This document shows, one piece after another, positions 1,270-58,759 of a stretch of DNA of 64,000 nt. The notes beneath the pieces were generated by a model, which did not search any database, was not told the origin of the DNA, and worked only from the letters and a program-made list of their open reading frames with translations. Source of the stretch: Mizuhopecten yessoensis (taxonomy: Eukaryota); NCBI RefSeq assembly GCF_002113885.1, contig NW_018408700.1:712691-776690 (forward strand). Direction: 5' to 3'. The position numbers were made by a program, and so were the translations under genes. Position 1 is the stretch's first letter. Each line of letters begins with the position of its first letter.

Positions 1270-1406
1270 ATGCCCGTTGCAGCTTTTTTAGTTTTCTTCC
1301 CAATCTAATACGTCGCTATGGTGTACATCCTGGCAACAAACTCTATCAATACTTCGGTGATTTGCTAGAGAAGAAGACTGGCAATCCTGACGTTACCTTC
1401 GAACAG
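1270..1406 (+). CDS. Gene A exon (DARCSFFS...DVTFEQ)
   Basis: ttcag|...|gtttag; 137 nt, same length as gene B exon 45616-45752. Confidence 0.88.
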
Positions 1407-4400
1407 GTTTAGTAGTTACCATGCCTTGGTATATGTATACTAACAATGATCTTCTTTGATTTTTACATTTTGCTCATTAGAAACGGTTAAAGTTATTAGA
1501 AATGTCATTGCATCTCTCATCGAACTTTTTTTAGTATTATATTGTTTCGAATTTTTTGAATGTGAATCTTTTTACGACTGTTCTTGTTATTGAAATCTAA
1601 AAATATTCATTATATATGATACAATGTACTCATTCGGTTTCGTGTGTTCTGTTGTTTTTTTATTTGACATTGTCTTGTACTTATATATATACACAAGACA
1701 TGTTGGTAAAAGTACTGTTTTTCAGGTTTACAAGATGTTCAACAAGGAACTTTGTTTGGTCATGATAAATGTAAATAACATGCGGGAAGAGTACTGCCAC
1801 CCAAAGACCACCCCAAAAATGAGTGTTCGTCTGGCTCTGCGCATGTCTGTTTCTTACCCAGGTAAGGTTAAACCGTTTGACCAATCTTACCATAAAATGT
1901 CACTGTTGTAACCATACATCTAAGGGCATAAATCACATAACAATTACTTAATGATCGTAGCAAAAGGTTTAAGACAACCTATAAATAAGTATAGAAATAA
2001 ATAGATTAATAATATATAAAGGGCCGGTTTCCAAAACGGCCCCTTCTCTGATTCAAATTTCCTGTTGGTGGTGCATTGCCCATGCTGTTGTGGTCACAAA
2101 TCTATAAAGTATAAAGATTTAGGTCACTTGGTTTGTTTTTTATGGCTCCTAAAAGTTGTACCTTTCAGAAGCTGTCTAAGTGTTGATAAAATGTGCATGT
2201 TATGTAAAATATTAATGAAAATCTAATCAAATGATGGTCACCGTAAAGAATACATTCATGGCATGATTGTGACAAAAAATCATGTTTCCATCGCGCCATT
2301 TGGCTGTTTTATGGAAGAAACAATCTCAAAAATGCCATTTTCGATGATAACATTTTAGACACAAAAACTGTGTTTTTTAGAGAATACACCCTTTTATGGG
2401 CGTTGGATGCAAACCAATTTTTATCCTATTAAACAGTACGTAATATGCTATTGATGAGAGGAAAAATCATCAAAATGTAAGTGGTGGAACATTTTCAAAT
2501 GTTGGGTTGAATTAGCCTATGGTTGAATTGCCGATTTTCGACTTTCTTTAGATAATTAACAAAAAAACGAGAGTATTTGCTCGGTATGTTGAGAATATGT
2601 ACACAGATATGAAAAAAAGTGAGAGAAACACTTTTTCATAAAAAAAATCCAAGATGGCTACTTCACAAGTCCCCGTGGTTGAAGACATTGGCTGACAAAT
2701 AGACAGAACAACAAACAAAACGTGTTCCTTATGATTTTGGTTGGTTTTCGCATTTACGGGAGTGTTCATAGCTACGGGCGATTGTATAATACCTATATTT
2801 ATAAGTTTGGTTAGTCACATGGTAACGGGGATCTTTCATATCGAGCCCCAAACATACTTTCGACATATGCACTCCGTTGCCGCATGGAAAACTATTTCAA
2901 GTTTTGTCGGAATTTCTTTACCTGTGGTTGTAATGGTCGAGGGTTTTCCAGCGTCCTGTAATACCCAAGGTAGTACAAGATACTGGAGATGTGCGCACAC
3001 ATTCCCATCGTTCTCTCTCCAACTGGGCACTGGCAGTAGTAGTCCTTTATTGGGGCCTCAACATCGGGTGAAACGGTGAACCGTATCCAAACGTTATATT
3101 TCGTTTGGCTTTTGTGTCGAGAATGTATTTGACATCGGAGAAGGTCTGGGGAGTGCTGGTAAAGCCACACCTCATAGTCTCCGTCATCACTTAAATGTTC
3201 GGCGATGTAACCAGGAGCCAGAGATATCTGATACGTTCCACACGTAATGGTTCTCAAGTAATCAAGATCGAGACGGGGAAACAGTACGGAAGATGCATCC
3301 ATCTTGACAAACTCGGACCTTGCCCGTCTAGATAGATCCGGATCTGTCTTGACTCTCTGAGCTAAACCATTCGGTGTTGTCAAACGGTCCTTCATACGTT
3401 CAGCCATTAGCCTATCTTTGGCATCTCTCTCTGGAGATCTCTGGTAGATCGGTCCTCTAATACCATTCAGACAGGCTGTGACGGTTCGAAGCAAAGCCTC
3501 GATGACATTGATAAAGCTGTTAGACACCAATTGCGTTCGGAAGAACGTCCAGTGTTTCAGACGACCATGATAGGATTCCACAATCCACCTCGATTTGGTG
3601 ATAGTTCTGTCAAGATTTGCTTGGACGTCAGAATGTTGACTTTGACCGGGTTTCAGGTATGACGGCATGCTAGCATTGAGGCCAGAGGCTTCGAGAACTG
3701 GTAGGACATCTCTAAAACCTCGGTCAACGACAACGTTGTCGTCTGGTTGTAGCCAAGTAACTAGCTTGTCCATGACTTTTTTTGTAATTGTAGCATCATT
3801 TTCGCTGCCAGTGAATGGTCCTACTGTGTCCAGAATGTAGCCATCTGGTAAGGCGATGCTCATGAATTTGAGATAGTTTCTCTTCTTCTGGCCACAGTAG
3901 GACATTCTCTGGAGCTTGTGGTCGGAGCTTTTCTGGATATAAATATAGGTGCCATCTAATATGGCAGTGGCTTTATCTCCAAAAAATGCTTCTGAAAAGA
4001 CAGTATTGTGCCCGAGCAACTGTTCTCTTGTCAAGTGATCCGGACCTAGAAATTGTGGGACTATCGATGTGTCTAATGCCTGTACTATGGAGTGGAAAGT
4101 TTTGGACACACTTGACTTGGAAATTCCAAAAAGAGAAGAACACTGACTCCAGGAAATGTCGGTTTTCAGTTTTACCCAGAACAGTAATAGAGCATCGTGT
4201 GTAGTCTTGGTATATATACCAGATGAAAGATATGGGGAACAGTGCGAGTGGATTTCGAGGAACTGATCTTTGGACCAACCTGTCCAGGCCATGCATGCCG
4301 AGTCATCAAGAGAAGAAAAGCTTATTGTAAACGCAGACTGGTTCTGTGAAAGGACGTGCGACACCTCTAGGAGGTCATTAATGATTTCGGACGATTTTGA

Positions 4401-13400: not shown

Positions 13401-16400
13401 ACTCGATGACAGTAACCTACATTGTGCAACATGAAAATAATTGTCACCTCACGACAAAGGTCTTCGACATTATTACATAACTACCAAACTCTACGACATT
13501 AACCTTCATTATGATACTAATAGTCACCTCGCTATTTAACTCAATGGAAAAGCAACGTCTTAAAATTCAAGATTATTGTTAAAGTTTCTCTCATTTTGTT
13601 GCCCTTTTTATTGTCCACTCATTCCTTCTGTCGTATTTTGTTTTGTTATAATTTACCGCAAAATACCAGCAAATATCAGGGAAAGCCGTTCGTGACTTTT
13701 TATTGTTAAAATGTATTTCGTTAGTTGTGAACATTTGTTAGATGAACCGTAAAGATGTATTATCTTTCTGGATATTGATCGCTTTGTTACTTTTCTTTAT
13801 ATTACCATGTGACCTGTCGTTCCGGATGCAAAGGTTTTGAAGAAACATGACCTCAATGGGGACGGTAAGATTGACATGAACGAAATGAAAAACGTATTTG
13901 CTGACGTAAGTAACTCTTTTGAATGCATTTAAAAGACTTTTTCATGTCGGAACTGGCGTGTTTGTGTTTATTGTTAGACCCTATATCATACCGGTATATA
14001 TGTGTTTTATATTCTATAATCCATCTATCATATGCAGATAGACGTGTTTGTATATATTGCAAATAACCGTATGTTATTGGAATTCGCGTATTTGTGTATT
14101 ATGCAATTTATCTAATCTGTTATATATGGGGATGGACATTTTTGTATATATCATTATTAAGCCTATGTTATTGGAATCCGCGTATTTGTGTATTTTGTAA
14201 TTAATATATCATATGTGGACAGACGTTTATGTGTATATTGTAATTAACGTTGTGCTACGTCGACGACAAGCGTCACTTTCATTAGATGTTACGTTGAATG
14301 CGAATCACGGAGGCAGACACTTGACTATTTTCCTTATGGTAGAATACATATAATCGATATATAAAGAAATATTTACAGTTCACGCCAATATTCACTCAAT
14401 AACCATTGTTTCCGCAACTTGATTTATCGTCTTATAATCTGACAATTAAACGTAACCAGTTTCTATGTCGTAGACAATAACACATGTTGGCGAAGCTATG
14501 CCAATTTTTCACGAACGAGACACAATTGTGTGACGAAATTAATGTTGGAGGAGTTAACCGGGGACTTGTACAAATTTAGACTGTTACTTTTATTGAATCG
14601 CACAGATGTTTATAACTTTTGAAATTAATTTCTTATCCGCTGATCAGACTTGTGAATAAAATAGTTTTTAACCATTTACAGCAAAATGCATTTAATATAA
14701 AGAGCAGAATTCTAATTTGGTCAAGTTATGAGGTAATACCTCAGTTGGGCATGCGTAAATTTATCATAAGGGCAATTCGCCATCTATTCAATTTACACCT
14801 GCTCAACTTAATTAATCAACTCATAACCAGGCAAAAATAGAAACATTTTCTTTAAATATATCACCTCGGTTTCAGAAATATATTACCCAGACCGAATTGG
14901 ACCTGTGTTTACTAACCATTAACGTTCTAACTTTATTTTCCAACACAATAGGTGCACATATGTTGATTAGTTTTAGGCTGAGTATGTGATAAATTGCGTT
15001 TTCCCTTCCGGAAGTGTTTGTGTACACTGTAATATATCGTGTTGTAATACATCGTGTTATGTCGAGACATACATTGTACACGTTTGTGTATATTGTAAAT
15101 AATTCGTGTAATGTCGGGGTCAGACATATTTGTGTATACTTATTATATTGTGTTATTTCGATACATACAACTTTGTGCATATTGTAAATATATCGTGTAA
15201 TGTCGGGACAGACATATTTTTGTATACTTAATATATCGTGTTGTGTCGAGAGATACAAGCTTGTGTATATTATAATATATCGTGTAATGTCAGACAGATG
15301 TATTTTTATATACTTAATATATCGTGTTGTGTCCGGACTGGCAATTTTGTGTACACTGTAATATATCGTGTTATGTTGGGACAGACAAGTTTGATCGTAT
15401 GCTGTCATGATACACGTGTAATGTATCACATTTGAATAGACTTGTACGGGTATAAATAAATCAAAGGAGCATGGTGCAAATAGATTTTATTAAAAAATGA
15501 TCTAGGACATGATGTTTATTGTATTTGTAATACAAAATAATTGTCATTCTTATTCACAATGTCGTTTTTTTATAATCCGAAACTCTTCTTTAAACTTGTT
15601 ATACGGTTCCCCGATGTCACTGTCAGTTTGATGTTTATTCATAGCTTGAAATGTTAAATGAGTAGCTCTGGTACCTTAGTATAATATTTGAAAATAAAAT
15701 ATGAAAACTTAAGGACGATGTGTCATCAATGAAGTGTTAACTTTGTTTGACCTCTTCACGTCGATATTTCAGTTCGTTCTTTAGTGCTAATATGTGGGTG
15801 GCAACGTTTTATCTGTAAAGCGCTTGTGATGTCATTCACAATTGTTTTCCCTCGTAAAATACCAGTATCAGCAACGGTCGCGCTAACTGTTGTTTTAAGA
15901 CATGTTCAATCCAGAGATTGTACGACTGTCCCGCGTATTTCTTTTTATTTTGTTTACAGACCCTCACTCAATGCTCTTCTGTGATTTGGTTGCATCCGTG
16001 CTTGATCTATCCTCTTAACTCTGGTACCTTAGCACACTTGTGCTTTCCTGAATTTTGGTTTAAGTTCACATCGGTTCCTCCTCTGTTTCCGAACTGACAT
16101 TTTGTTCAGATTTTTTTCTTACATTTTGATGATGTGACCTATCTTATTCATATATTTTGGTGCTGTGTTATAGTTTGTCTTTGTTTGTGTGGAAGAAGTA
16201 AAAAGTCGAAATCTAATCTTAGTTGTTTTTATTAAATGTGAAAAATTGAACTCATTCATCAACAGCAAAATGAATGAGCTTTTAATATTGACAATAACGA
16301 TCATCGACTAGTCGGCCATATTGTGGAAGTGTTATCCATCAAAATCCTTTTTGTTCTGTAGTCAGAGTTTTCTAACAAGAGCAAGCGGATTATTTTTGGT

Positions 16401-19400
16401 CATGGGAGACAATGCGATGCAGTGGAGGCGTTCGATCTTCTTGACGCTAATAGCGATGGGCAGGTAAAAATAAAAAGGGAAACAGATAACCTTTTTATGG
16501 AACAATCTTCCGTTCGCTGTAAAATCTATAAATACTTTTAAAAGCAATTTAAGAACTTGAATTTGGTAAACATGAGTTACTTAGGCAATAAGGTTTCCGA
16601 ACAAAAACTTAATAGCTGTGTATTCGCCTTACTCATACAAAGACTTTTCTGAGTAAGAACTTAATGTCGGTATCTACGACTAACCAAGACAAAATCAATG
16701 CTGGATTAGAGCTTGATTTTAATCAAACAAATCCGATTATAGGTTCAAACTTGATTTTGGTATACATGACGTTTTCAGTTTTACCATATATTTATCTTTT
16801 ATCCACGTTTTATCAATCAGGTGACGTTCGATGAGCTAGTGACGTTTGTGGAGCAGCGAGAGGGTATAGATCTTCAGCAGCTGTATACGGGCTATAAACG
16901 GCACGAGATAGACGGGGTGACCTCATTCTTCTCCACCTGTCTCAACGCTGTCTTCCTTAATGCAAGCCGAATATTCATGGAGGTATTGTCATTGTTCGTG
17001 AAAGCGTTGTTTATCTGTGCATTATCGTTAATTTCCATGTTTATACTTTTCATTGTCGTTATTCTCACTGTTTATACTTTTCATTATCGTTAATCTCACT
17101 GTTTATACTTTTTATTATCGTTATTCTCACTGTTTATACTTTTCATTATCGTTAATAACACTATTTATGATTTTCATTATCGTTAATATCACTGTTTATA
17201 CTTTTCATTATCGTCAATATCACTGTTTATACTTTTCATTATCGTTAATATCACTACTTATACTTTTCATTATCGTTAATCTCACTGTTTATACTCTTCA
17301 TTTTTGTTAATTTCACTGTTTATACTTTTAATTATTGTTAATATAACTACTTATACTTTTCATTATCGTTAATATCACTGTTTATACTTTTCATTATCGT
17401 TAAAATCACTGTTTATACTTTTCATTATCGTTAATATCACTACTTATACTTTTCATTATCGTTAATCTCACTGTTTATACTCTACATTATCGTTAATTTC
17501 ACTGTTTATACTTTTCATTATTGTTAATATAACTACTTATACTTTTCATTATCGTTAATATCACTACTTATACTTTTCATAATCGTTAATCTCACTGTTT
17601 ATACTTTTCATTATCGTTAATCTCACCTGACACATTTACAGATCGAATACCATATTTATCTGTTGTATATATGCCTACTGATAGTCCTACCCTTTCACTT
17701 TTGTTACATTTTATTTCAACACCAACAATACAAGTCGTCAAACATATTTAGGGGTCACAACTAAAAAAGCTTTTACAAAGGTTACAATATGACATGGTTA
17801 GATTAAAGGAACGTGTTCTAGACAGCGGAGGCGATATTTCATCACGTAGTGGAATATTATGTATTGTGTTTACATGACCACAATGTCTATTTATCTAATA
17901 ATACAACATGCCTTAAGACACATTTTGTAAAAGTGATATGACGGTGGTATTTGTAGATACTCATTTATTATAATAAAACTGAAATTTTACAGTTGCTGCG
18001 TTTTGTAGAAATGAAGTCAAAAGTCATATACAATGTAATGACTTCAGAATGAAGTAGATTCAGTAGCGAGTAACACACCGAGGAAGTTACCGGTACAGTA
18101 ACATGTTGATGATAGAACTCCACTGGTTGTTATCTCAACATTGTTGTCTTGTTATTTCGAAATGACTTGTGAACTTTAGAGAGTGATTTTTCTACATTCT
18201 ACTGCCTCCCCAGGATACTCTCACGGTTAACATTACGCCCATCCTCGATATCCAGGGGTTACGCTCACATTCGCTCTCTACACCCCTTGAATATATCATA
18301 GCAAAATTGAAGGCTCAGTGTTCGCCACCTTGTTGATGAGACAAGAAGATTAGTTCGATACTTTGATATACATCAAACGAATCTCGCGGTCACGTACATT
18401 GCGCAACGGTAAAAATTGACAGGCTTTGAAGTCGGGCGTCTCTCCTTTGTAATCTTCAAAGGACAGGTATCAGCCTAACGATTGGTCAGGTGTGTTTTTT
18501 TACCTGAGACCAATCAAACAGATATCTATCTTCGTGCCTTCAATCTTGCTATGACATATTCCAGGGGTGTAGAGAGCGAAACTGAGCGTAACCTCTGGTT
18601 ATCGAAGATATTTTACACCCAGGAATAATTCTGATTCGCTGACTGTGATCACAGAAACAAATCAAAGTTTGTCTGAAAAAAAGAAAATTTAAAATTAGAA
18701 CCGATTCATCAGACGACATCATTATATCACGGTATGAACAAATTGATGTGCAGGTTTTGTTTTCATTAATTCCGAAACGAATTAGTTGTTTAATACTTAT
18801 CAGGTAAAAAGTTTAAATTATTGTCCTGTTGGGACCTTCCAGAGGAAATGTTGGCCTTGACCTGCCTCTGGCTTCTACACATCTGGAAATAGTTTTGACT
18901 GTTGACTGCTTCACTGTTTTCTCGTACTTTCAAAAAACGCTTAACAGTTACTCCATTCCGTATAGGTTTATTGTCAAAAGCATTATCCCTCGATGTTGGT
19001 ACCAACATAGCAAACTGTTTTTGTTTATGTTTTCGTCGTTACAAAATCCCCTTGCTGCACAATTCTGCCAGCGTATTCGGATTAAAGGAAATGTACAACG
19101 GTGCATCATCAGGTGGCAATTATATCTATTCAGCAGTCGCTCCTTCCCTGTATTGTTTAATTTAACCAGCATAGCTTCATTTCTTTCTAAAAAAAACTCT
19201 TCATTGTATATTATACCAATTGTTTTCTCTTTGAAAAGTTGTATTTTGGACTATGTATCTCAAGCTGTAGAAGTTCCCGTTTGGTATCCGACGTCTTTCA
19301 TAAAGCTTTGAGCGTTTAGTGTTCAGTGACGTTATGTTAGTTGTTAAAAAGACGTTAATTAAATAACCTAATCGGTATCAAAAGAATCGGAACCAATTCC

Positions 19401-34722: not shown

Positions 34723-35694
34723 TTTGTAAAATTAAAATAGTCCTTGTCATGGCCCCCATTGATTATAATTGTTTCCTGTCTTTTGACCGACATCACATAC
34801 ATGTTTTAATTATGAATCAATTACTTCATTTATAAACTAAATGTCACACAGAGACATTTTCTTTAACTTCCCGATAAGACGGACGGTCAGTGATTCATTG
34901 ATGAGCAAGAACCGACTTTACGAGGTTTCATTAATAATTCATAGCTGGGCTATCCTATCAGTACAAAATCTTGAGCAAAATGCAGCCATCTGAAAGTATT
35001 CAGATATTTCTATTTTAAGTGTATATGGATATGCTTTGTTACCTGTCAGATATATTGCCACTTTCAGATCGTCGTCATTCCCTGATTTGAATATATTATA
35101 TTTACATATGTGACCTATTTCCATTACTTGAGTAGACACAAGGTATGTTATGGCGGGTGTTCCTTGTGTTAAGGAAACGCTCACTCCTTTGATGCTCCTG
35201 GTTTCAGGTACGTTTCTAGAGTGCGATTAAGATTAATTTACCTGGGTTTTCTTTTCCTTGACGACATTGAGTTTTGATTTCAATGTTGAGGATGTGTTAC
35301 ATTATTTAGGAAACAGTTGTCCCAATGGATCATCGGGTTTTCACCAACGATTCTTGTGGGCGTTTATGACAAAATTTCTTTTCACTCTTTCTCTTAACAT
35401 CGACGAGTTTCGATTTTCTCAATGGGTGCTGCCGCTGTGTTTTATATATTTTCATTTTGTCCTGACCTTGAGATCTTTTCTTGAGTTGTTAGGAAATAGT
35501 ATAACCTTATGCGTGCGTGGAAGTGGGTATAACCATACATGTTGGGAGCAAGTATCAATAAATAAGATTATGTGTGTTTGGAGGTAGAATAAGATTATGT
35601 TTGTTAGGAAGGAGTATAATATTATGTGTGTAGAGAAGGAGTATAAGATTGTGTGTGTTGGGAGGGACTATACTAGCATGTGTGTTGGGAGGGA
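34722..35694. repeat. Segmental duplication, copy 2
   Basis: Near-identical to 31258-32230. Confidence 0.92.
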
Positions 35695-41600: not shown

Positions 41601-42410
41601 ATAAGATGATGTGTTGGGAAGGAGTATGAGATTATGTGTGTAGGGAGGGAGTATAAAGATATGTATGTAGGGAGGGTGTATACGAGTATGTGTTGGGAAG
41701 GAGTATGATATGAGATTATAGATGTAGGGAGGAAGTATACTGTTATGTTTGTTTGGAGGGAGTATACGATTATATGTGTTGGGAGAGAGTATAAGATAAT
41801 ATGTAGGGAGGGAGTTTAATGTTATCTATGTAAGGAGGGAGTATAATGTTATGTGTGTTGGAAGGGAGTATACGTTTATTTGTGTTGGGAGGGACTATAC
41901 TAGTATGTGTGTTGGGAGGGAGTATACGATTATGTGTGTTGGGAGAGAGTATAAGATCACGTGTGTTTTTGGAGGGAGTATAATAATATATGTGTTTGGA
42001 GGGAGTATAAGATTATGTGTTGGAAGGGAGTATGAGATTGTGTGTGTTGGGAGGGAGTATGAGATTATGTGTGTAGGGAGGGAGTACAAGAGTATGTGTG
42101 TTGGGAAGGAGAATAATACAAAATGTGTTGGGAGATAGTATACTATTACGTATGCGGGAAGAGAGTATAAGAGTATGTATGTTGGGAGGGAGTATAAAAT
42201 TATGATTATGGAGGGAGAATACGATTGTGTGTTTTGGGAGGAAGTACAAGATTATGAATGGTAGGAGGGAATATAAGATAATATTTTATGACATGGAGTA
42301 TAAGAATATGTATGTGTGAAGGGAGTATAAAATATATTTATGGAGGGAGTATAAGATTTTGTGTTTCGGGAGGAGGTATATGATTATACGTTTGGAGGAA
42401 GTATGTGGTT
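35500..42410. repeat. 27-bp G-rich minisatellite, block 2, with higher-order repeats
   Basis: Same unit; 503-bp internal duplication (~38860-39800) and ~262-bp HOR (39891, 40154, 40416, 40865, 41127). Confidence 0.95.
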
Positions 42411-42989
42411 TAATAAAAACAAGACAGTATTATGTTTAGCCTGGTCTTAAGGTTGATGCTAAGTCCAACCCTAGAATCCTGAAGTTATACAGTAGAGACG
42501 GTATTTTGTATTTTGTGCATTGAAGGTAGTATATGTTAAGTAATAAATGAATGTCATTCGTATGTAACAATGTGTAAATATAAAATGTTTGTTATCTTCA
42601 ATTGTTTGTTTTAAGCTGTTTACAATGTACACTTGATTGCATTTAGGTAGACAAATTAGACTTTGACGCCAACACAAACAATTTCGTTCAACCAAAAGTA
42701 GCAATCGATAAAATAGCATAGAAGCGGAGATCGGGGGTTCACACTCTGTGTGTCAGTGTTCTGATAAATAGAGTCAGAGTCCTACCGACTGTGGAACCAG
42801 CAACGGAAATATACCTCGTAAGAACACAGGAGGTAGTCGACCCTGTTCTAGCCGATGAATATTTATAAAATGAAAGTCATTTATGTGCAAATATTTCATT
42901 CCGCGTGTGTGTGAGATCAATAGGGTTGTTTCATTTCCTATCGGTTAATATTTTTCAGTTGATAATTTCCTAGTGCTCAGAGTTCAAGC

Positions 42990-43143
42990 ATGGGTACCAA
43001 CGGTAGCAAAGAGGCCAAAAAACCAAAGGAAAAGAACCCTGTGGATAAAAAAACGACACCCTTGGACAAACAGAAAAAAGAAAATGCCAAATTACTGGCA
43101 CAGCGGATGGAATCAGTGACGTCAACGGATGAACCAGATTCAG
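42990..43143 (+). CDS. Gene B first coding exon (MGTNGSKEAKKPK...)
   Basis: ATG in agcATGG context, donor CAG|gtaacc, phase 1 fits the next exon. A candidate acceptor tttttcag at 42951-42958 suggests an upstream UTR exon. Confidence 0.75.
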
Positions 43144-46100
43144 GTAACCTTTCTTCGATAGATCGTGGTCCGGTCCACGTACAAAACGCTGTAGTTTGAC
43201 ATAACTCTGTGTTCATTTCTCTGCTGCAATAGGTAAGGGTATCGATCTCCTGCATTTGATACATGCACAATTCCCATGAGACTGTTACACTGTACATGTA
43301 GCTGTCGTGCGGTCGAGAATGAATAATTATCCTATTACCTTACATACTCGTATGAACATGAGTTTTTTTGTGATTGATAACAATGGAAACGAGCTGGGTT
43401 AGGAGAAATCCTCGTTGACAATATGGTACTAATGTGTGTAGGTGGAAGGCGGGGAAATCATCCTTTTATGACCAATTGGTACAGTAATAGTGCGGAAGGC
43501 CCGAAGGCGGAGAAATCAACCACTTTCACAAATAACATAATATGGAAGAATGCGATCAGTTAATTATTTCATCATCCCCCACTGAATGTCGTATACCTAG
43601 TAATTACCTTGGTTATATAGCAAATAGCATGTTCAATTTAACCTAACAACACATCGATAAACGTGTTGCAAGCGTTTGCATAGCAGTGCTCAGTAGACAG
43701 TATCACTCTTGTACCTAGGTCGCTAGTTGAACCGGATTAGCTGTTCCTATTTTGAAAATTGCCGAAATAAAACACGGAGGATTACATAAACGAGCATGTG
43801 TTGATTTTTAATTAACATTTTTTAAATAAATTATTTTCGTTTTGAGCTTATTATTACTATTCTAATTTGTATCTCTCTTTCAAATGTTTCCTCTGTGTCT
43901 TCCGTTTAGGGGACACACGACGACTATGGCCGTTTTCGTTTAAACGACCACACCGGTCGGACCACAGTTGTTCGTTTATCAAATAATGTCGGACCTAGTA
44001 ATCTGATGCTGCTTTACCTGCATAAACATTTGCAGGTCCGCCAGGATTTATACCCGAAATTGTTACATTTATAAACGGTCAAACCGATTGTTCCGCATAA
44101 ACGAACAGGCCCTAGACCTGCTAATTCGAGGCTAGTCTCGCGTGTCCTCTCCTTACAGGACGTTACAGAGACAAAAAGTCCTGTTCTGATTCCTTGTTGA
44201 AGCACTTCGGATATCCATTGTTCCTTATATTTCCTTCCAAATCCTTTTCGTTTGCCTGGTTGCTATCTAGGCCCGACATTATACGGCCCTGACTGTTGCG
44301 AGTATGTGAGGAGCACAACCTCTATGATGCCTCAGCTTAATACCAGGCTGTCGGGATAATACAGGATAACATAACAATACGTTATATACATTTGTAATTG
44401 ATAACCTCTAATTAACATATCTATTTCTGATGTTGCAGTGGCTATAGAAGAGAACGCTCCTGTTGACGAGTATGATGGTTTAGGGGACAACATTTTTCCG
44501 TTTGAGAACCTTGTGTTTGAAGGCGGTGGGGCTGAAGGGGCCGGGTTTTGTGGTGCCTTAAAGGTTCTTATAGTTTTATTAAAAAATAATAAAAATATAA
44601 AAAAAATATACGTTTCAAAAATGTCCATACGATTGCATTTTAACCACTGTGATATAGTAACGAATTTATTGAAAGCTGGATATTCGAAAAATTTAATTGC
44701 TGCAATAATAATGTTACAAGGTATAGAAACATGTGTATGTTCTAAAATAAATATACAAACATTGATACTATATTACGCATTATAAGACACATATGTTCCT
44801 TTACAGTTGGAATATTGTAATATTTATAATACGAAAACTTAGATAGATATCTTTATTGTTGTCTATAAAACACAGACATGTAATTGACGAGAGACAGTGT
44901 GTCTACATATGTAATCACAAGTTCGTTTATTCTACCCACTTATTGCCAAAGGAATGCTGCATACCAACACATTTTATTAGTATTTGTAATTATCATATAA
45001 TGTACAATTTATACGTTCCATTCTGGCAATACTGAACATCAATTCTTATCATTGCATACCTGTCTTAACAAAGTAGTGAGATATTACATTATGTTTCCTA
45101 TAATAAAGGTTATCGAGGACCTTGGATTCATGCAGAACATTAAACGTTTCGCTGGGACCAGTGCTGGAGCAATTACGGCAGCTTTAGTGGCAGTCGGCTA
45201 CACTTCCAAGGAAGTAGACGAATTCCTCAGTCAAGATCTAAATACTATTTTATTAGGTAGGTAGAATCGGGTGAAATGTCGAAGGCATGCGTTGATTATT
45301 AGCCAGTGTCGATTAAAAACAGGGGGATCCATAGTTCAATAGTTATCACAGACGAAGGGGAAAATTGAAACCCAGAAAACATGCACAACACGCATCATAT
45401 AAACCAGTCCAAATTGTTTGAATGTTCTACGAAATATTGTCATGAAGTTCGGTTTATTTTTAATTATAAATTAAATTCGACAGACAAAGAAACTAAAACA
45501 AAAGTGTCCTTGATTCACATTTGATTAATTAAATCTGTAATCAATCATTTACGGCGAATCGACGTTGAAAGTTTTAAGACGATACCAGTTATACATGTAT
45601 GCCTTTTACCTTCAGATCATAAATGGGGCATTCTCAGCTTGTTACCGAGTCTGCGGAAGGATTTTGGTTGGAACCCTGGCAACCGTTTCTCTAACTGGCT
45701 CGGTGGGGTTTTGGCAAAAATTATGGGGGACCCGGATGTCACCTTCGCACAGGTAAGATACATACGAATATTGACCCAATAGGCAGAGAACAGATTCATT
45801 TCACATTAATACATTAGTGCAAATTATGTAAGCGTCCAAAGTATTGATGTTCAATCTGTTTTGTTCTTATGATTTCGATTCATCAATTTCCGCACGAATT
45901 GGCCCCGTCGACCGGTCGTCTCCGCTATTCGTATGCAGTTTTAATGACAATTCCACAGATAATGTGTACAGAAGCCGGACATATGTGTTTACAATATACA
46001 CATGAATATAACCTTACAAATTGAAACAGATCAATGCAGTAGTATATATCATTAAATAGAACAAACATATATACACTGTAAAGTTTATTTCTTAGTGTGC

Positions 46101-49100: not shown

Positions 49101-52100
49101 AGTTTGAATTCACTGTCAACATGTATAACACATTTCTCAAATATATACGGGACTTCGGTATTTCATGAGTATGTTAAGTTTGATAGTTTGTGCAACAAAG
49201 ACCTAGCTGCTATGTGTAAACGATGAGTATGACTGTGAATTAAACATAACTTGGCCACACTGTGAAGTAATTATACTGTGTTGAGCCGTATGGACATGAA
49301 AATCAATTACAGAGTTACGTTTAGACCTAACCCGATATAACATTAGACGTGTCAAGGATTTATACCAACTGTCGGTAAAATCTTAATCCCGAAAACGTTT
49401 AATAATACTCCCACTACACACTAGGGTAGGATCAAACATATACCATGTAACTGATTATCCCTGTGTGACTATTAACTGTAAGACTAACTGACGTCAAATC
49501 TCATCACTACAGAGATTTTGTGTCCGCTGTGTGATCTGTCTTCATGTAATACGTACGATTGGATGTTTTTTCACTTAGCTTGACAAAGTTAGACTACTGT
49601 CTGTTTTTTAATAAAAAGGGATTTATTACACCCGAGAGATACAGAACGTGATATAATTCTCGAGTGATGAAAAGTAAGGCACTAACTGTTTTACTGCATA
49701 CTTCCCAACTTGAACACACGAATGAGTGAGTGACCCTTTGCGTTTCATTCTGCAATCACTTTTCGGTGTACGGTATATTTTTCATATTATCCATAGTTGT
49801 TTAAAATTGTCTTTAACTACGAAATCTTAGTGCTGATGTAAGGAAACAGTGTTACAACCGCCACAAAAAATACAGATGTATAATGGATATTTGATATAAA
49901 GTCTCTACTTCAGAAAGGGTAATGGGGAAATTGTCAAAAGTACCAGGCCCCGTGAATTCATTGAAACAAGAGTATTCTGCTCCAGTCTGGAAGAAGGAAA
50001 TACGATATCACTGAGATAATTAGATTTCTGTTTTTGTTATTTTGACTTTAAGGACATTTTAACTTTTTTTTTACTTCACAGTATCATTGACTTCATGATT
50101 CTTGTCTTGTCTTTCTTCACATAGCCGTATATTTGTAAGTCCAATTCACATCACGCCCCTTTCTTGGTAGATTAATTGTGAATAGGGATATGCTATGTAT
50201 TGGACTGAGATAACATCTGATTTATTACACATGCTTTTCTATTATAAAAGGACATGAACTATGCAGTAAAGGTATCAGTGTATGTTCATTACCCCATCAT
50301 ATGGCTTGTCGCCAGAGACTCTGGTTTCCTCCTACCCTAAGACCCCCTGAGCGTTTCAATCGGAGCCAACAGACCCCTCCCTCCCCTCCCGCTACCTAGC
50401 GAGGAATTGTTAAGTCTGTCTACTGCATAGGGGACATTGGGTAAAAATCAGCTAATGCCCCAATTTCAACACTTTCGATTTTTACATTTTTGCCTTACTT
50501 TCCTATTCTGTCTTCTTGGCTGTGTCTCCTTGGAAACCCGCCTGTATATGACATTTGCTGTTGCGAGGACGTTTAACTCCAGAAAAGCAAACAAATCATT
50601 TACAAGTTCACTCGCTGTAAAATATGCATGATTTACTTCAGTCAAACAATTTGAATTTGATCAAAACATTTACCAGGTGTACCAGTTAACACACAATGAG
50701 GTCGATATTACATTGACCACATTGTAAAATGCACACGATGTGTTTCAGTTAAACAACTAACTAACAATATTCATATACACGATGTATTTCAGTTATACAA
50801 GAAAAGAGGAGTAGAACTTTGTGTAGTAGTCACCAATGTCAGCCGCATGACGGAGGAATATTGTCATCCGAAAACAACACCTCACATGCCGATCCGGACA
50901 GCAGTACGAATGTCTATGTCCATTCCAGGTATATGTCCCATGTTCCACGAATTGATCACAAAAGGCGAGCAGCCTGTAGCTGATCAATCATATGGATTGT
51001 GTTCTCATTCATTTAGATCATACGGACCAGTGTTTTATAGGATTGTAACTGTATGTGTGATTTGTATAGATCAAAAGGACCACTGTTCATAAGCTAATGG
51101 ATGGTCGTTCTCTTTCAAGTTGTACCTTTATAAGCGTTCGAGCATTTCATTTGTGCTATTTATCATAACGATGATGTATTGGGAAATTTGTTAAACAATT
51201 TACACAAAAAGACAAAGCAAAATCGTTTCGTGATTAAGACTCTGTAAATAAATAACCTCCAGATGAGTAGAACTATCAATTACTTATTGTTCTCGAGGTA
51301 CATATTTTAGTGTTAGGCATACAATGATATATCAATGTAATTATACGAATTATGTGCATGTAACACTATAGAAGATTAATATAGGTACATGTATATACAT
51401 TACATGTATGGTTTACAATAAACGACAAGAGAATATCGAAGTGTCAACATAGCCATAATTTGAACTCAAAATAGATAAAACTTACGCAAAATATGAACAA
51501 TTTTTTTTTTAACATAGAGACCATTAACAAAATACAAGTAGAATAAGACCAGGTATACCAGAAGGGTAAGCGTGTTCTGTTTCATTGACGAAACCCGCAA
51601 TGTAAATCTATATCAACTCCAAACAATGTAGATTGATATAAGTATAGAACATAGTTATATATGTTATACCATATAATACTAATAAAGTTATATAAATTAC
51701 ATGAATGCTATACAATAGTTGATTAATATAGTTATTCCCTTTCAGTTTTATTTCAAGCGGTGAAATACGATAAGGCCGGCGACGAGGATGTGTTTGTGGA
51801 CGGTGGGATCATGTGTAACTTCCCTATACACTGTTATGATGGTAAATGTCTAATAAACTGTTTTGATTATTAATTTACTCTATATATTGTTGTAATGGAA
51901 ATTAATCCATACATCAATATGATGGTAACAACCAAATACAGTGTCATTATGCTATCTTCATATTTACTTTGTTTAATAATCATCCAATACTGAAATATGA
52001 CACAGTATTGACGGAAGCTTACTTATAAAGTATTTCAATAATCCCTCTCCTATGCATTGTTTTGGCAACTACTTTTTCATGTATTACAGGGCTACGAATC

Positions 52101-55100
52101 ATGCACAAAACAATACTATAGGGAATACTTTTCTATTTTGTCATGTTATCAGATGAGAACTCGAGTGGAGTACTAGTAACTTTATTAAAGATGGCTGCGC
52201 CTTGTGTTTCATTTACACGTAAGGCATACTGTATAACATGAAATGTTCGTTGTGTATAAACATTCGTGGTTTTCGTGGTTGCTATTGAACCACGAAAATA
52301 TATACAAACAGTTTGGATGATATACGTGTCTGCTGTTTGTTATTAAAGGATATCACGAAACATTGCATCATAAAACGATCTAAATGGCTTCTAACCACGA
52401 AGGAAAGTACCCACGAACATTTCGTGTTATGAAGTATCGATCTATTCAATTTACACAATTTATGGAGTTATGACCTCATATTCTGAGCGAAATAAGACAG
52501 CTTTTTCTTATACTCACTGTATTTTTATACATTAATCTATAATCGAACGCAAATTTCAAAACATGTTACACGTACCGTGTAATAAGTTAAGAAAAACTAG
52601 CATTCTGAAATTTGAATGAGCCTGGACTTACACCGCCCCCATTTACTGTTTACGACGTTACATATGTGCTCCTCGTTACAAAGAAGCATAGCTCTGTCTA
52701 TGTAACACGGAAACTTGTCAAGATGTACAGTTAGGTAATGAGATGATAAAAAAATAGTTTGCGAAAACAATGGTTATTGGGTAAATGTAAGTATTTACTT
52801 AATAGTCTATGTGTATACGTATTACAATACGGTGGTAGGCATATAAAATGTTGCGTATACATAGAGAAATATACATATTTCTCTGATACCGGAACGACTT
52901 GTCATGTGTATGCCTGTAAAATATTACTGATGTTGTTGTAATAACAAATATACCGGGATCCATCAAAATATGTAAACTTTCATAAAGCAGGCTTTTGCTT
53001 AAATGTACACGATTAAATTTAATACAAGTATTATGAAGATCTTTTTAAAATGTAAGCATCTTTGATCGCTAATTGGTTTCAAAATAGAGAGCCACATCTA
53101 CAGTAACAAACAAAAGATGATAAGTTTAATCTGTGTTGTAGGCTGGTGGCTATCTATGGAACCAGGAGACACGTTCCTTGAAAGACTCAAACCACTAGAC
53201 AAACTACCAGGTCTTCTAGCCAGGGACGGCAGATTCGAAGGCAGGAATTCCAAAACGCTAGGATTTCTAGTGGTATGTAGCACCATCATATCAGTGTGAA
53301 GTAAAATCCTCACAAGAAAATTTGATATAGTTGGCAACAAAAATGCCTTTTTTAAAGAAGAAAAAAGAAACTGAATGTTTCATAGCGTAACATATTAACG
53401 GAAGCAAATAGATGAGGAATGATTGATTTGACTGTTTGTTTGCCAGTTTGTTAAAATTACTTTGACTTTTTTCATATGTGTTTGTTTTAGTACGAAGACC
53501 TAGAAGAAGATTTATTCCGATTCAGTATGGAGAAGAGATATGGGAAACAGATGGGGAAAATACCTAAAACCTCGCTCTCAAAGTATGTTGTAGCCATTAC
53601 GCCGTGCAGTCTTCATAACTTGCACACTGCATCAATTAATTAATCAGCGTTGTTGGTACTGTTCAGTCCTGGCGTAAACATCATCGGGTTTGTTGAATGG
53701 CAAGCCAGTATGGGATACATCACAGAAATAGACAATGAAGTTATATATTTACTTGCTCTGGCCACTGATCAATGGTCATTTACTGGTCTTGTAGATTTAA
53801 CAGGTCCTGACCAAACATAATTAATATATGTTTATATCTTAGCTGCTATCTTATTGTTCTTACATTGTTTCTAATAACAAAATGTGGAAATATTTAAAAG
53901 TTGGCGTTAGCGCGTTATGATGAGTTTGTCTGCAATCCTGTTAGAATTATAGGACAATTATTTTCCAAAGAAAGCAGTTTAAAACCTATATTTCCGTTTT
54001 TAAATGAAGTTTTTCTTATATTTCCAACCTGTTATCGCATTTCAAAGTAAAATTTCGCGCTCCCTGTCAATGGGACCTGTTCTTGTTGTGATGTCACGAG
54101 TGCACGCGACCGTTCCCGGCAAAAAAAAAGTTCGTGAAAATAAATACACAATCATGAATTTAATTTCAACAATTTAATCAATATATTCCACAGTGAGAAT
54201 ATTCACCGTTTATACAACATAACTACATAAATTGTTGCGAGTTACGTTGATCAATAAGGTTTTTTAATCCGGTAGCATGGATGGGTTACGACGAGGAATG
54301 CGTATTGTTATTGATGTGGTGATTTAGCCTGATGACGAACGGTGAATTTAGCGATTGAAATTGAAAGTGCAGCCGGAAAAAGTTGCGTTTATGAATAATC
54401 CGGTAGTTACATGTACCGTGTTTGTGGAATGAAGAGTTATTTGCTTTGATGTGTTTTTTGTCACTTTATGGAAGACGACAATTAATTTTCGTGACGTCAA
54501 TGATACAATTAATTTAGTGACGTCGGTCAAAACGACGTCGTTTAGTCACGACGTTACGAACATGATACTTCATATCACTACACCAATGGGAACTATCCGA
54601 GAATTATGATCTGATACCTTTCTATTTTTTTTGGTAAGGTTATGAAATGGCAATCGGAGCAAATGGAAATATTACAAACTATTCAGTTCATTCGATAGGT
54701 AAATGTGTATATATACTGCATCACGATATAATGAACCCTTACAATAAACATAGGTGGGACAGATGATTAAAATTACAGCGGACACTACTATATCTGGACA
54801 TGATGCCCGTTTACTTTTGCTTCTAGGAAAACCGTGGCAATTGGTAAATAGGACGTATCCGGAAAAGCATATTTCAGATAAATGTAAAAGTCTGCTTCTC
54901 TAATATCTACACAAATACAATATACATAGCATTGCTTAAGTACATCTTAAAACAGTGATTCATTTCTAACTGTTTAATTAGTTAAAATCTGCAACATGAT
55001 TTCTTTTATTATTAATTTCTAAATGTATAAAACAACATTGATTATATATGCATCGAAAACAATGTTTAACAGGTTATACGATTGAGGTAGTGTCCGAATT

Positions 55101-58100
55101 AGTTTAGCAATACATGTATATTCAAATGTGCTTAGAAAATATTTGACTATTGCATATTGATTATCTTGAGTTAGATACTTTATTTGCGGTGTGACGTCAA
55201 GTAACCCGACCTCATTTCATGCCGTGAGTTTTTTTAGGAAAGTAAAGCATGGGTCGATAGATCTATAGATGAAACCGACTTTTGGTATTAGATACATTGC
55301 AGTAATAAATACTTGTCTTATTTCAGACGGAAACTGAAGAAGAAGGCGTTACAAAGCGTTGCCAAGAAAGAACACCAAAAGATTATGGAAGCATTCACCG
55401 ATTTTTTCGAAGTATGTCTGAAATAGAGGTTCTCCAATGAATAACGGTTGGTTACCATGTTATCTAACACGAACGCGAGTTAGTTTATTTTCAAATTGTA
55501 TAAAGACACGAGGTTTACCGAGTGTCTTTTGCAATTTGAAAACTCACTAAAAAGAGTTATATAGATATGATAACCAACCATCACGAGTTTTGGGACCATT
55601 TTCTCCCACAACGTTCAAATGGTATATCTTGTAGTCTATCTAGAACACTATGATTCTCTGGCTGATGCATTATTCCTTTTTCCGATCAAGGAAACAATTG
55701 GCATGACCTATATGACTTCACAATAGAAGATGACGTCGCAAACAATTGTTACCTAATGGGTAACCAAAAATGTTTACCATCTACCCATTGCTTTATCAAA
55801 TGAGTCGGAATTGAGAAAACCTATGGTGGTTGTGAGAGAAATGAACCATTCTCATATGTTGGTTCTGGAAGATTAACATAGGAAAAGAACTTCTTATTAT
55901 AAGTGAATTAATTGATATTATCCTATCCCGTAATATTTTTTCCTGCATATCCAAAGATGGGTTCTGAATATAATGTTTGTCTCAAAGCCGCTCACATAAC
56001 GAAGTTAACACTATATTTTTTTAAATTTTTAAATCATATCTTCACTCCTTGCGATCGTTTTGCCGATCAGGCACCATGTAAAACTTTGAGGCTGGAAAGG
56101 ATGATTCTTTTCAATATTTCATTTTAGATACTGCGTCATCATGATCTCAACAGAAACGGTTGTATCAGCAAATCAGAACTCGAGGCAGCGTTCACAGACG
56201 TACGTATTTCTCCGTACGCAATCTGCATGAGGAGTGTATAACATCTTATTAAGCATTGAACTGTTTTCAGTTGGCATTCGCAGGCAATAGGAATGCCAAC
56301 TGGACAACAGCAAATTCAATGAAGCGCACTAACTGAAAACATTCCAATACTATATTTGTTATCCGTCGAATTCATAGAAATTTCAATTATTTTTATCATT
56401 ATTCAGCATATAGTTAAAAAAATAAAGTTATCGTATATACTTGTTAAATAAATAGAATAGCCATCTGTCAATTGAGGGTCAGTGGTATGCAACGTTACAA
56501 TTACGACGTCATAATAATAATGACGTCAACAAACGGCTAATGACATTCATAGCCGAGATGGTAAATGTGTTTGACGTTCTTAACACTACTGATATCAACG
56601 CCGATAGGCTCTGCGTCTAAGAAAAAATCACACAAATAACATAATATCTTTTTGCCTTGGCATTAAGGTTTAAGTCCGGTAATATTGTTATAGTCCGACA
56701 AATTGACATGTTCTCCGATTACCTAGTTTATTGCAGACGAAGCAGTATTTATAGAAATAGCATAGCTAGGTCTGCCGTTCAATGTGAAATAGTCGTAATG
56801 TCCTTTGGCACTTAAATAAACAGACAGACACACTGAATAAAAAGCAATTATTCCAGGTAAAAATCAACGCGACAGGTCATTTTCGTCTGACTATACTAAA
56901 AATGTGTAGTGATTAAGAATAAAAAACATGACCATAACGTATACAAGTAAGAACTTCTATGCTGCCAATCTGATCATCTACCCTTACATATCCACAGATA
57001 TCGGACGGAATCAAGGAAACCTTGTTCGGCCCGGATATAACCGCGGATAAGGCGTTCGAACTGTTGGACAGCAGTAAAGACGGAGAGGTGAGAAACGTCA
57101 TATACGGTCCCGCGAACAATTAACCTTCCTGACAGTTCATTTTTGATATTTAATTGTTTGTGGGATTCGTGATTTACGTTTTGACAAATATTAATACTCC
57201 TTTTAAAATCGCAGGGGTTATTGTCCATTGCCAATCGGCATTGCTCTGTGATTATTCGCTGAATTATTTTATACAAAGTAATGAGCTTTCATTGGCATGT
57301 TGTTGAATCGTCCTCAACTGCGTTTCATAAAACTATCTTAAATTTCAAATAACATTAAGATTTGTCTTTGCAGATTCAGTTCCAGGAGCTAATGGATTTC
57401 GCACAGAGTAATGGCGTCTACCTTTTAGAGCGTTACCTTGGTTATAGTAGACAGGAAATCACCGACTTCCAATCATTCACGCATGCGCTGCAGAACGCAT
57501 TGCTAGTCAACGGCAGCAGAAGATACGTCGAGGTATGGAGCACATTACGACAAGTTATAAGATACCTGTACATTCATCACCTATATGACAAAATCATAAT
57601 ATCTTCATCGAAACTGTGTACATTTCTTGTAACTCTGCATTGCATTACATTACGGGTACGATTGATAGAATACCTTAATCACTAACTTTACGACTATTTT
57701 AACATCCTTACTGGTAATGTGAGGTCCCATGGAAGATAAATTACAGCTCACATCTTTTCCTTTTTTTCTCGTGAGCGTTAAAGTACCAGGCTATCTGAGT
57801 TTGACGGATTTTTTGAAATTTTTAGCGTAATGTTTTTTTGTTTTACTTTTTTATTTATAGGAAAAGGATATCGACCGGTCAGTTGGAATCAACACGGGTC
57901 ACGTAGGGGTGATGGACTTTGGTATGGAGGTAGCGGACAAAGACTTCACAGTGGAGGTATGATGGACGCGTCGTTTTATGGCTTACTTGTTGTACTAAGT
58001 AACGGTACACGTCTTCAATAAGTGTTGATAGTCTTAACACAAAAAGACAAATAGAATCTCTAAATGGTTCAAACTTCATATCAGTATCAAAGTAACCTTT

Positions 58101-58759
58101 TGAATAGAACCGGCTTAGATATTCTTTCATGTATACTATGTATCACGGAAGTCATATCAAAAGGACTACATTAAGTATGTGTATATATCTGTAAAGGAGG
58201 AACATTGCGAGTTTGGTTTGCCAACAATATATCACTGTATTACCAAACTCCGATAACAATACCAGAAACGAAGGAAACAAAAAATGTCTGCGTGTCGATA
58301 TGTGATTCTGTTGTTTCATCATGTAGATTTAGAAAGTGGTCAACACAAATAAAAGTTACAATCCTCATTTTCTTATTTATCATTTTTCAGCAAGGACAAA
58401 GGAGTATGGTGGTGTTCCTCAAACATTTTGTCAAAACGCATGATCTTCCAAAACGCGATAAAACCGAGACGAAGCAGAAGGAAAATACGACGGGAAAAGG
58501 TGAGGATAAACACGAAGCAGGAAATGAAGACTCTGAATCTAATGCTCACAAGCCAACAACAGGAGCTAGCAATGATGACAAAACGCCCGAGGTTAACAAC
58601 CCAAGTGTGAAAACAGAAACACCAGAGGTACGTTCAACAGAAGAATCGACAGAAGTTGTAACTAAAGAAACTGAACCCGAATCAATCCAGATAGTGATAC
58701 AGAATGACAAGGAAAATGTTTCCGAGGAGGCGTCCACCAAGGGAGAATCAGAGACATAG
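42990..58759 (+). CDS. Gene B (complete, 14 coding exons, 629 aa): N-myristoylation-motif patatin-like phospholipase (ExoU/VipD-like) with two EF-hands
   Basis: Exons 42990-43143, 44439-44563, 45109-45256, 45616-45752, 50793-50928, 51746-51841, 53142-53272, 53491-53582, 55327-55411, 56128-56199, 56998-57087, 57374-57532, 57861-57956 and 58391-58759 total 1890 nt, in frame, all GT-AG. Motifs: NLVFEGGGAEG (Gly-rich loop), AGTSAG (nucleophile Ser), RMSMSIP, FVDGGIMCNFP (catalytic Asp), EF loops DLNRNGCISKSE and DSSKDGEIQFQE. Confidence 0.92.
44439..44563 (+). CDS. Gene B exon, Gly-rich loop (FENLVFEGGGAEG)
   Basis: tgcag|...|gttctt. Confidence 0.88.
45109..45256 (+). CDS. Gene B exon, GTSAG nucleophile elbow
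   Basis: aag|VIEDLGFMQNIKRFAGTSAGAITAALVAVGY...|gtaggt. Confidence 0.9.
45616..45752 (+). CDS. Gene B exon (HKWGILSLL...DVTFAQ)
   Basis: ttcag|...|gtaaga. Confidence 0.9.
50793..50928 (+). CDS. Gene B exon (LYKKRGVEL...RMSMSIP)
   Basis: ttcag|...|gtatat. Confidence 0.9.
51746..51841 (+). CDS. Gene B exon with catalytic DGG motif
   Basis: ttcag|LFQAVKYDKAGDEDVFVDGGIMCNFPIHCYD|gtaaat. Confidence 0.9.
52227..52436. mobile_element. Tc1/mariner-type MITE
   Basis: tactgtataacatgaaatgttcgt / acgaacatttcgtgttatgaagta inverted ends; internal ttcgtgg/ccacgaa motifs. Confidence 0.65.
53142..53272 (+). CDS. Gene B exon (WWLSMEPGD...KTLGFLV)
   Basis: tgtag|...|gtatgt. Confidence 0.9.
53491..53582 (+). 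CDS. Gene B exon (YEDLEEDLF...PKTSLS)
   Basis: tttag|...|gtatgt. Confidence 0.85.
55327..55411 (+). CDS. Gene B exon (RKLKKK...FTDFFE)
   Basis: ttcag|...|gtatgt. Confidence 0.85.
55446..55579. repeat. Imperfect ~135-bp inverted repeat (MITE-associated hairpin)
   Basis: ggttggttaccat...ttttcaaattgtataaagacac / gtgtcttttgcaatttgaaaa...atgataaccaacc. Confidence 0.7.
56128..56199 (+). CDS. Gene B exon, EF-hand 1
   Basis: ILRHHDLNRNGCISKSELEAAFTD; tttag|...|gtacgt. Confidence 0.88.
56998..57087 (+). CDS. Gene B exon, start of EF-hand 2
   Basis: cacag|ISDG...AFELLDSSKDGE|gtgaga. Confidence 0.85.
57374..57532 (+). CDS. Gene B exon (IQFQEL...RRYVE)
   Basis: tgcag|...|gtatgg. Confidence 0.88.
57861..57956 (+). 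CDS. Gene B exon (EKDIDRSVGINTG...FTVE)
   Basis: tatag|...|gtatga. Confidence 0.88.
58391..58759 (+). CDS. Gene B last coding exon (QGQRSM...GESET*)
   Basis: ttcag|CAAGGA...TAG; acidic low-complexity tail. Confidence 0.88.
   Translation, partial: QGQRSMVVFLKHFVKTHDLPKRDKTETKQKENTTGKGEDKHEAGNEDSESNAHKPTTGASNDDKTPEVNNPSVKTETPEVRSTEESTEVVTKETEPESIQIVIQNDKENVSEEASTKGESET

Follow-up and report, generated by a model that had tools for sequence, protein, structure and literature searches.

Patatin-type enzymes are the textbook "calcium-independent" phospholipases, and the question raised by the present locus is what a pair of EF-hands is doing inside two neighbouring patatin genes of a scallop. 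The locus belongs to a stretch of 64,000 nucleotides from Mizuhopecten yessoensis (contig NW_018408700.1, positions 712,691 to 776,690 of the forward strand), called here the window and numbered from its first letter, and the two genes are LOC110462095 (gene A) and LOC110462082 (gene B). The best reading of both genes, which we hold tentatively, is that they encode membrane-tethered patatin lipases switched on by calcium, and some form of calcium control, taking all readings together, is probable. We infer calcium binding, myristoylation, lipase activity and an activating rather than inhibiting sign of the calcium effect from the evidence described below.

Gene structures and transcripts

Genes A and B are neighbouring paralogues with 14 exons each and equal intron phases at all 13 introns, the equality of phases having already been recognized in an earlier note made from the sequence of this stretch, and their proteins share 43% identity (175/406 aligned residues). 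Spliced at GT-AG borders, gene B gives a single open frame of 14 coding exons (42990-58759), whose product has the 629 aa that had been predicted and is identical to RefSeq XP_021371578. Regarding gene A, 11 exons are located within the window (1270-21224), corresponding to aa 131-544 of XP_021371602, with exons 1-3 lying 0.6-3.4 kb upstream of it.

1270-1406, 1726-1861, 6790-6888, 8120-8250, 11945-12048, 12387-12462, 13834-13905, 16362-16463, 16821-16982, 20582-20677, 21093-21224, plus strand: gene A (LOC110462095), exons 4-14, 544 aa in total, exons 1-3 upstream of the window
42990-43143, 44439-44563, 45109-45256, 45616-45752, 50793-50928, 51746-51841, 53142-53272, 53491-53582, 55327-55411, 56128-56199, 56998-57087, 57374-57532, 57861-57956, 58391-58759, plus strand: gene B (LOC110462082), 14 coding exons, 629 aa, from splicing and RefSeq, all 13 junctions in contigs

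In each of four sequencing runs (four studies), contigs bridge all 13 introns of gene B, and in two runs a single contig spans exon 1 to the last exon. The RNA status of these runs is a guess of the tool, none being on record as RNA, and the contigs are read as transcripts because of their spliced GT-AG joins. As the gene B contigs join all introns, the EF-hand exons and the catalytic exons share one transcript, in agreement with the earlier note. The runs were chosen for gene B, and the finding of no exon cover or junction of gene A in the four of them says nothing either way. A RefSeq isoform of gene B, X2, skips exactly exon 6, which bears the catalytic Asp, in frame, being left without residues 234-265; this skip is not among the gene B contig junctions shown. 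Two gene B contigs extend about 125-135 bases before 42955, and a non-coding first exon is therefore placed upstream of that position.

Catalytic motifs

Both proteins match the patatin profile PF01734, with 99.7 and 97.3 bits against a cut-off of 27.7, the Pfam domain of gene B covering residues 76-262. Conservation was read from an alignment of 115 rows, composed of 111 of the best 120 hits (nine isoform-like rows being dropped) and four cluster members. The earlier note had listed the same patatin motifs for both genes, and the Ser-Asp dyad is kept in both, as GTSAG and DGG in gene B and as GTSFG and DGA in gene A. The other spellings need correction, as gene A reads GGGSKG in the glycine loop, GTSFG at the nucleophile (both outside the window) and MSVSYP at block III, and the glycine loop of gene B reads GGGAEG.

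44522..44539, plus strand: glycine-rich oxyanion loop GGGAEG of gene B, with Glu84 at 44534-44536, a site occupied by Lys in 107/115 relatives
45154..45168, plus strand: GTSAG with the predicted nucleophile Ser111 of gene B, Ser in 115/115
51746..51841, plus strand: exon 6 of gene B, with the predicted catalytic Asp252 (DGG, 51799-51807), Asp in 113/115 and two gaps
53142..53272, plus strand: exon 7 of gene B, with the family-specific GWWLSM segment and strand 5 (KTLGFLV), from alignment and model

The glycine loop of patatin-like lipases is expected to bear an Arg or Lys, and gene A has it. Gene B departs from this pattern through Glu84, which is seen only in four scallop orthologues among the 115 rows, a Lys-to-Glu change that the earlier note missed. 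Gene A, keeping its Lys, is thus the likelier phospholipase of the two as judged by this loop, and gene B, with Glu, likely prefers another lipid. Block III is of the bacterial type, RMS[MV]S[IY]P and not AAP, following the ASxxxP-like definition given in the passages on this block in PMC5127104, and R227, S229 and P233 are found in 113/115, 113/115 and 115/115 rows, respectively.

The EF-hand pair and its place in the fold

The two near-canonical EF-hand loops reported by the earlier note are present in both genes, after KTLGF and before RxVGINT, within the span that aligns to patatins, and the Pfam EF-hand model scores above its cut-off in both proteins (pair at 364-432 in gene B). Each gene has two 12-residue loops with ligands at positions 1, 3, 5, 9 and 12, arranged as a helix-loop-helix pair.

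13849..13884, plus strand: gene A EF-hand loop 1, DLNGDGKIDMNE, from sequence
16443..16835, plus strand: gene A EF-hand loop 2, DANSDGQVTFDE (DANSDGQ/VTFDE), split by a phase-0 intron, from splicing
56143..56178, plus strand: gene B EF-hand loop 1, DLNRNGCISKSE, residue 374, from sequence
57067..57388, plus strand: gene B EF-hand loop 2, DSSKDGEIQFQE, residue 416 (DSSKDGE/IQFQE), split by a phase-0 intron, from splicing and contigs

An AlphaFold2 model of gene B built from 115 sequences (mean predicted local distance difference test, pLDDT, 79.9) resolves the EF pair well, placing it after strand 5 (304-310) and a long helix (337-373) and before strand 6 (482-486) and a helix at 499-524, with the two hands joined through short strands at 380-382 and 422-424. 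Residues 543-629 have a pLDDT <50 and no helix. When this model is compared by VIA-align, VipD comes first (Z 24.5, root-mean-square deviation 2.7, 251 aligned residues, 28% identity), residues 68-525 of the model falling on 30-412 of the chain, followed by a lipase complex, CapV and PlpD within about 1.5 Z; residues 364-438 match EF-hand proteins. The position of the pair inside the patatin fold, proposed from the sequence, is therefore supported by both the model and the structural comparison. The best sequence hits in the Protein Data Bank (PDB) are ExoU (E 1.2e-9) and VipD (E 3.4e-8), which, together with the top structural hit, bears out the likeness to bacterial ExoU/VipD patatins suggested before.

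The stretch between strands 5 and 6 of patatins is termed the "regulatory segment" in the passages of the 2026 review PMC12871566 on their architecture, where it is also described that in VipD this segment and the loop after strand 6 (the lid) move upon activator binding, opening the site. In the scallop model, the EF pair is predicted to occupy this regulatory segment, ahead of both the lid loop (487-498) and the last helix (499-524). The lid-equivalent loop is among the best conserved parts of the protein, with T487 in 110, D494 in 111 and E498 in 109 of the 115 rows, and D501 in 114.

57861..57956, plus strand: exon 13 of gene B, with strand 6 (SVGIN) and the conserved loop 487-498 mapping to the VipD lid, from alignment and model
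58391..58759, plus strand: last exon of gene B, in which the C-terminal patatin helix ends and an acidic tail follows, low in confidence and poorly conserved, from model and scallop comparison

Taxonomic range and origin

Of the 7991 proteins scored in a protein search, 1856 passed at E 1e-5. The members with names in the best 120 come from molluscs, an annelid, cnidarians and amphioxus, and look-ups add echinoderms, a hemichordate, a nemertean, an MMETSP protist and the euglenozoan Papus, whose protein has a Met-Gly start and an EF match below the cut-off. Vertebrates and arthropods are absent from the named hits, no search having been aimed at them. When 185,579 prokaryote genomes were scanned, 36 loci were found in 35 of them, either Myxococcota-like or Actinomycetota; both EF loops are seen in 32 of the 36 loci, the remaining four being incomplete. 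The Cystobacter fuscus homologue (locus L021, 4929-6422) is colinear with gene B across the fold, having 38% identity over 469 aa (E 3e-96) and a profile match of 100% (459 columns). In the ESM Atlas, mollusc, echinoderm and actinobacterial clusters are found at 0.98, and a bacterial model reaches a TM score of 0.86 over 447 residues. Consequently, contrary to what had been proposed, the family is not confined to invertebrates; to judge by these sequences, the patatin-EF architecture is not an invertebrate invention, being shared by myxobacteria, actinobacteria and at least one protist.

Bacteria seldom carry the gene, with 0/150 among the other Myxococcota sampled. Contamination as the source of the bacterial hits was rejected, because L021 belongs to a complete chromosome of Cystobacter fuscus, where the homologue has chemotaxis genes next to it, and other cultured myxobacteria carry the gene. 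Among viral contigs, ten matched the pattern and none is a relative; among plasmids, 33 records match the core only and none reaches 80% cover.

In a maximum-likelihood tree of 48 rows, most of its protist-like rows being unnamed, the insert-bearing family is separated from ten EF-less patatins with a branch support of 100/100, pointing to an EF insert that arose once. Animals group together (98/93), as do bacteria and protist-like rows (97/93), and a quick tree made from 295 well-filled columns agrees in shape. By the approximately unbiased (AU) test, neither an animals-plus-bacteria grouping (p-AU 0.12) nor one holding all eukaryote-like rows together (p-AU 0.11) is rejected; for this reason, and because most protist-like rows are unnamed, no donor is claimed. 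Genes A and B are not sisters in the tree, and each has a Pecten orthologue, both on one 44.8-Mb contig, so the tandem duplication behind the pair, part of the earlier interpretation, is old.

The M. yessoensis genome has at least five family copies, the further ones being a second tandem pair on C4067 (37-88 kb) and one or two on C2051 (895-902 kb)/C4541/C68347. Among other relatives, the EF-less patatins P0259, P0274, P0277 and P0285 (360-384 aa) form one outgroup clade and also have a Met-Gly start. P0196, P0255 and P0276 have a Patched/sterol-sensing domain fused to the patatin module, with EF matches in two of the three; P0107 carries a PDZ domain, and P0004 is a tandem double.

Conservation of the EF-hand pair and the predicted N-terminal anchor

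The second EF loop is highly conserved among the 115 rows (Asp1 in 111, Gly6 in 109 and Glu12 in 111), and Glu12 of the first loop is kept in 105. For the bacterial side, 117 of the best 120 Cystobacter fuscus hits were compared, leaving out one fusion, one fragment and one earlier row; these rows are mostly unnamed, and the named ones are bacterial. Counting with an EF-loop pattern, at least one loop fits in 108/117 of them and in 82/111 gap-free animal rows, both loops fit in 17/117, and Glu12 is found in 117/117 for either loop. In three other scallops, 67-69 of the 71 residues of the gene B EF pair are identical (94-97%), as are 33-49 of about 97 residues of its tail, and the core is 94-96% identical across the four species.

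The N-terminal Met-Gly motif was also overlooked in the earlier note. Both proteins begin with Met-Gly-x-x-x-Ser, MGTNGS in gene B and MGGNHS in gene A.

42990..43094, plus strand: gene B N-terminus MGTNGS, with the motif for a predicted N-myristoylation, and 11 lysines within the first 35 residues

A Met-Gly start is seen in 74/111 animal rows beginning with Met, compared to 6/117 rows of the bacterial query, and the myristoylation pattern is matched in 64/111. A Cys within positions 3-8 is added in 30 of the 74 Met-Gly animal rows, which are not independent of each other. The start is likely a myristoyl anchor. A recoverin-type calcium-myristoyl switch was considered as well and is unlikely, four EF-hands being needed there.

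Genomic context in bacteria

The bacterial neighbours are mostly metabolic and variable, as seen by a Pfam scan of 63 of the 244 predicted neighbours. PADLOC hits were obtained for 6 of the 64 neighbours scanned with it out of the same 244, namely two kinases, a methyltransferase, a hydrolase, an ArsR regulator and an amylase, all of them generic domains. No nucleotide cyclase was found among the 63 (Pfam) and 64 (PADLOC) neighbours, many contigs being short. A permuted NlpC/P60 (Peptidase_C92) gene follows the homologue in 5/11 myxobacteria-like loci (L010, L011, L012, L013 and L030), overlapping its stop codon in four of those five. Moreover, a lipoxygenase is present in 7/11 myxobacteria-like carrier genomes vs 13/150 genomes of the phylum sample (Fisher p 4e-5). 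This context hints at lipid signalling and not at defence.

In addition, a weak lipoxygenase-like gene (3121-4629) is divergent from the homologue in L037, and GDSL lipase and PI-PLC genes lie near it in L027 (2615-4090 and 7185-10262). JGI gives several bacterial homologues the name "arachidonate 5-lipoxygenase", yet they lack such a domain; the lipoxygenase fusion that these names suggest was looked for in 25 long or so-named proteins and found in none.

Comparison with known systems

ExoU and VipD (CDD Pat_ExoU_VipD_like, cd07207) are the nearest solved relatives by sequence and structure, and the section of PMC5127104 on this family (section 7) includes sea urchin, sea anemone, Trichoplax and lancelet proteins in it, with no mention of EF-hands in that section. 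Compared to ExoU/VipD, the scallop proteins add the EF pair inside the regulatory segment, the GWWLSM segment and the Met-Gly start. Their genes are endogenous and intron-rich, not those of secreted effectors, and have no C-terminal membrane- or Rab-binding domain; no folded C-terminal cofactor- or membrane-binding domain is seen, gene A ending about 30 residues past the last helix. The Myxococcota and Actinomycetota patatin-EF proteins, such as that of Cystobacter fuscus, share the design across the whole fold, but have no Met-Gly start or introns, and in many of them loop 1 is the better of the two EF loops. Their database names are automatic only, and no study of them was found.

Regarding iPLA2-beta/PNPLA9, the likeness consists of the patatin fold (Z 20.4), the Ser-Asp dyad and a calcium-linked control; unlike the scallop pair, it has ankyrin repeats and a separate calmodulin, and its control is inhibitory. 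The scallop genome has separate patatin exons that we take, by their motifs, to be ATGL-, iPLA2-beta- and NTE-like. In line with the earlier note, the scallop pair is not an ordinary PNPLA orthologue, identity being 38% to Cystobacter vs 12% to iPLA2-beta. Cytosolic PLA2-alpha (group IVA) has a related fold (Z 15.8) and is a calcium-controlled intracellular phospholipase A, the role proposed here for the scallop pair; its calcium acts via a C2 domain on membrane docking, unlike the proposed control of the lid. Neither a C2 domain nor PF01735 was hit in the scallop proteins by Pfam at E 0.01.

No study of the EF insert or the family was found in the literature, subscription journals being mostly outside the coverage, and the six gene ids have no linked paper. 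The terms EF-hand and myristoyl do not occur in PMC12871566. In its available passages, the sea urchin PLA2 paper PMC6523306 deals with ordinary iPLA2, and animal members of the family may be included in the supplementary tree of PMC3688537. The patatin and EF domain pair is visible in automatic annotation. The pair stands as a genuine variant of a familiar type of enzyme, apparently uncharacterised so far, with a broader range than the earlier note supposed and a plausible calcium switch.

Proposed mechanism and alternative explanations

In the proposed mechanism, the acyl anchor, a predicted N-myristoyl group, would hold the enzyme at the membrane, and calcium, once bound by the EF pair, would shift the regulatory segment, opening the adjacent lid, so that a fatty acid may be released from a membrane lipid. 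Functionally, such an enzyme would parallel cytosolic PLA2, except that calcium would act on the lid and not on membrane docking. An own calcium sensor in the segment controlling the lid would give most of the non-vertebrate marine animal groups sampled, farmed shellfish included, a new path linking calcium to lipid messengers. The intron-free bacterial homologues of the same design make the mechanism testable with one expressed protein, and the outcome would bear on the use of cytosolic calcium in bacteria. A broader and doubtful proposal is that of an ancient unnamed lipase family whose EF pair directly gates the patatin lid, which, if true, would be a third route to calcium control of phospholipase A, beside secreted PLA2 and the C2 domain. 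The family would occur in cnidarians, molluscs, annelids, echinoderms, amphioxus and protists and, via gene transfer, in myxobacteria and actinobacteria, where it would feed lipoxygenase-type lipid signals and be one of the few bacterial enzymes under the control of cytosolic calcium.

Several observations weigh against a calcium-activated tethered lipase and its wider role. EF1 is degenerate in most animal members, with Asn at position 1 in 87/115, and the EF signal is lost altogether in some paralogues, which means that some lineages can do without the insert. No Met-Gly start is seen in the cnidarian members checked by name. The scallop genome has separate loci of the cPLA2/phospholipase-B type (PF01735), for which reason the idea of the family as a cPLA2 replacement was rejected. 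As for the lipoxygenase excess, genome size and kinship are confounders, and a weak lipoxygenase hit is seen in only 2/24 actinobacterial carriers. Furthermore, the parallel with VipD is positional only, because its Rab5-binding helices sit outside its regulatory segment, according to the VipD passages of PMC12871566. Where a link of a patatin enzyme to calcium is known, it is one of inhibition, since calmodulin with calcium inhibits PNPLA9, as stated in the PNPLA9 passages of PMC5823874.

This inhibition fits a different explanation, in which the EF pair binds calcium but turns the enzyme off, as a built-in version of the iPLA2-beta calmodulin brake, leaving a lipase that is active at rest or at falling calcium. 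Anatomy and conservation are compatible with either sign of the effect; still, we regard the brake as quite unlikely, since VipD, ExoU and the CBASS lipases are inactive until an activator binds, as described in the parts of PMC5127104 and PMC12871566 that treat them, and a tethered lipase switched on at rest would presumably be costly. It is also unlikely that the pair is a structural or protein-binding surface of calcium-independent housekeeping lipases for membrane remodelling. The decay of EF1 in most animals and of either loop in bacteria would be explained in this way, as would the EF-less paralogues that retain their catalytic motifs; however, at least one loop matches in most bacterial-query and animal rows, Glu12 is nearly invariant, and both scallop genes have two matching loops.

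The immune or lytic role put forward in the earlier note, which would make the enzymes effectors that lyse membranes on a calcium signal, akin to CapV, ExoU or fungal patatin effectors, found no support and is improbable. The CBASS lipases CapV and CapE are structural neighbours with a like patatin fold (Z 23.3 and 22.1) and a ligand-gated design, many diverged paralogues occur in filter feeders, and the bacterial presence is patchy. Against this, CapV and CapE are gated by cyclic dinucleotides and have no EF insert, the scores are far below the family cut-offs (NCBIfam CBASS_lipase 26 and 19 bits vs 200, VpdC 78 and 67 vs 1000), the bacterial neighbours scanned include no recurring defence partner, and the near identity of the gene B core in four scallops is unlike a fast-evolving conflict gene. 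Finally, gene B could act on its paralogues as a regulator, with weak catalytic activity or none, in line with a Glu84 restricted to scallops where the block I passages of PMC5127104 give Arg or Lys as normal, and with the predicted isoform X2. We consider this very improbable, as all four scallop orthologues keep Ser and Asp along with the rest of the site, and the exon-6 skip is missing from the contig junctions shown. ATGL-type lipases also work without a basic residue in the glycine loop, and the scallop's own loop of what is, by its motifs, presumably this type reads GCGFLG.

Other elements in the window

An intron of gene A contains a DNA transposon (2021-6092) with an intact 685-aa DDE transposase open reading frame (2892-4949, minus strand), which matches Pfam DDE_Tnp_4 and HTH_Tnp_4. 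The element has short terminal inverted repeats and is flanked by AAA and TTT, a pattern that we take to recall Spy-type elements of the PIF/Harbinger group. Contigs from the four runs cover it, possibly deriving from other copies. The comparison with Rfam gave no match. Between genes A and B, a 10.3-kb satellite (32098-42387) is composed of about 380 copies of a 27-bp unit, and a 3.5-kb direct duplication is located at it (31256-34727 / 34720-38217).

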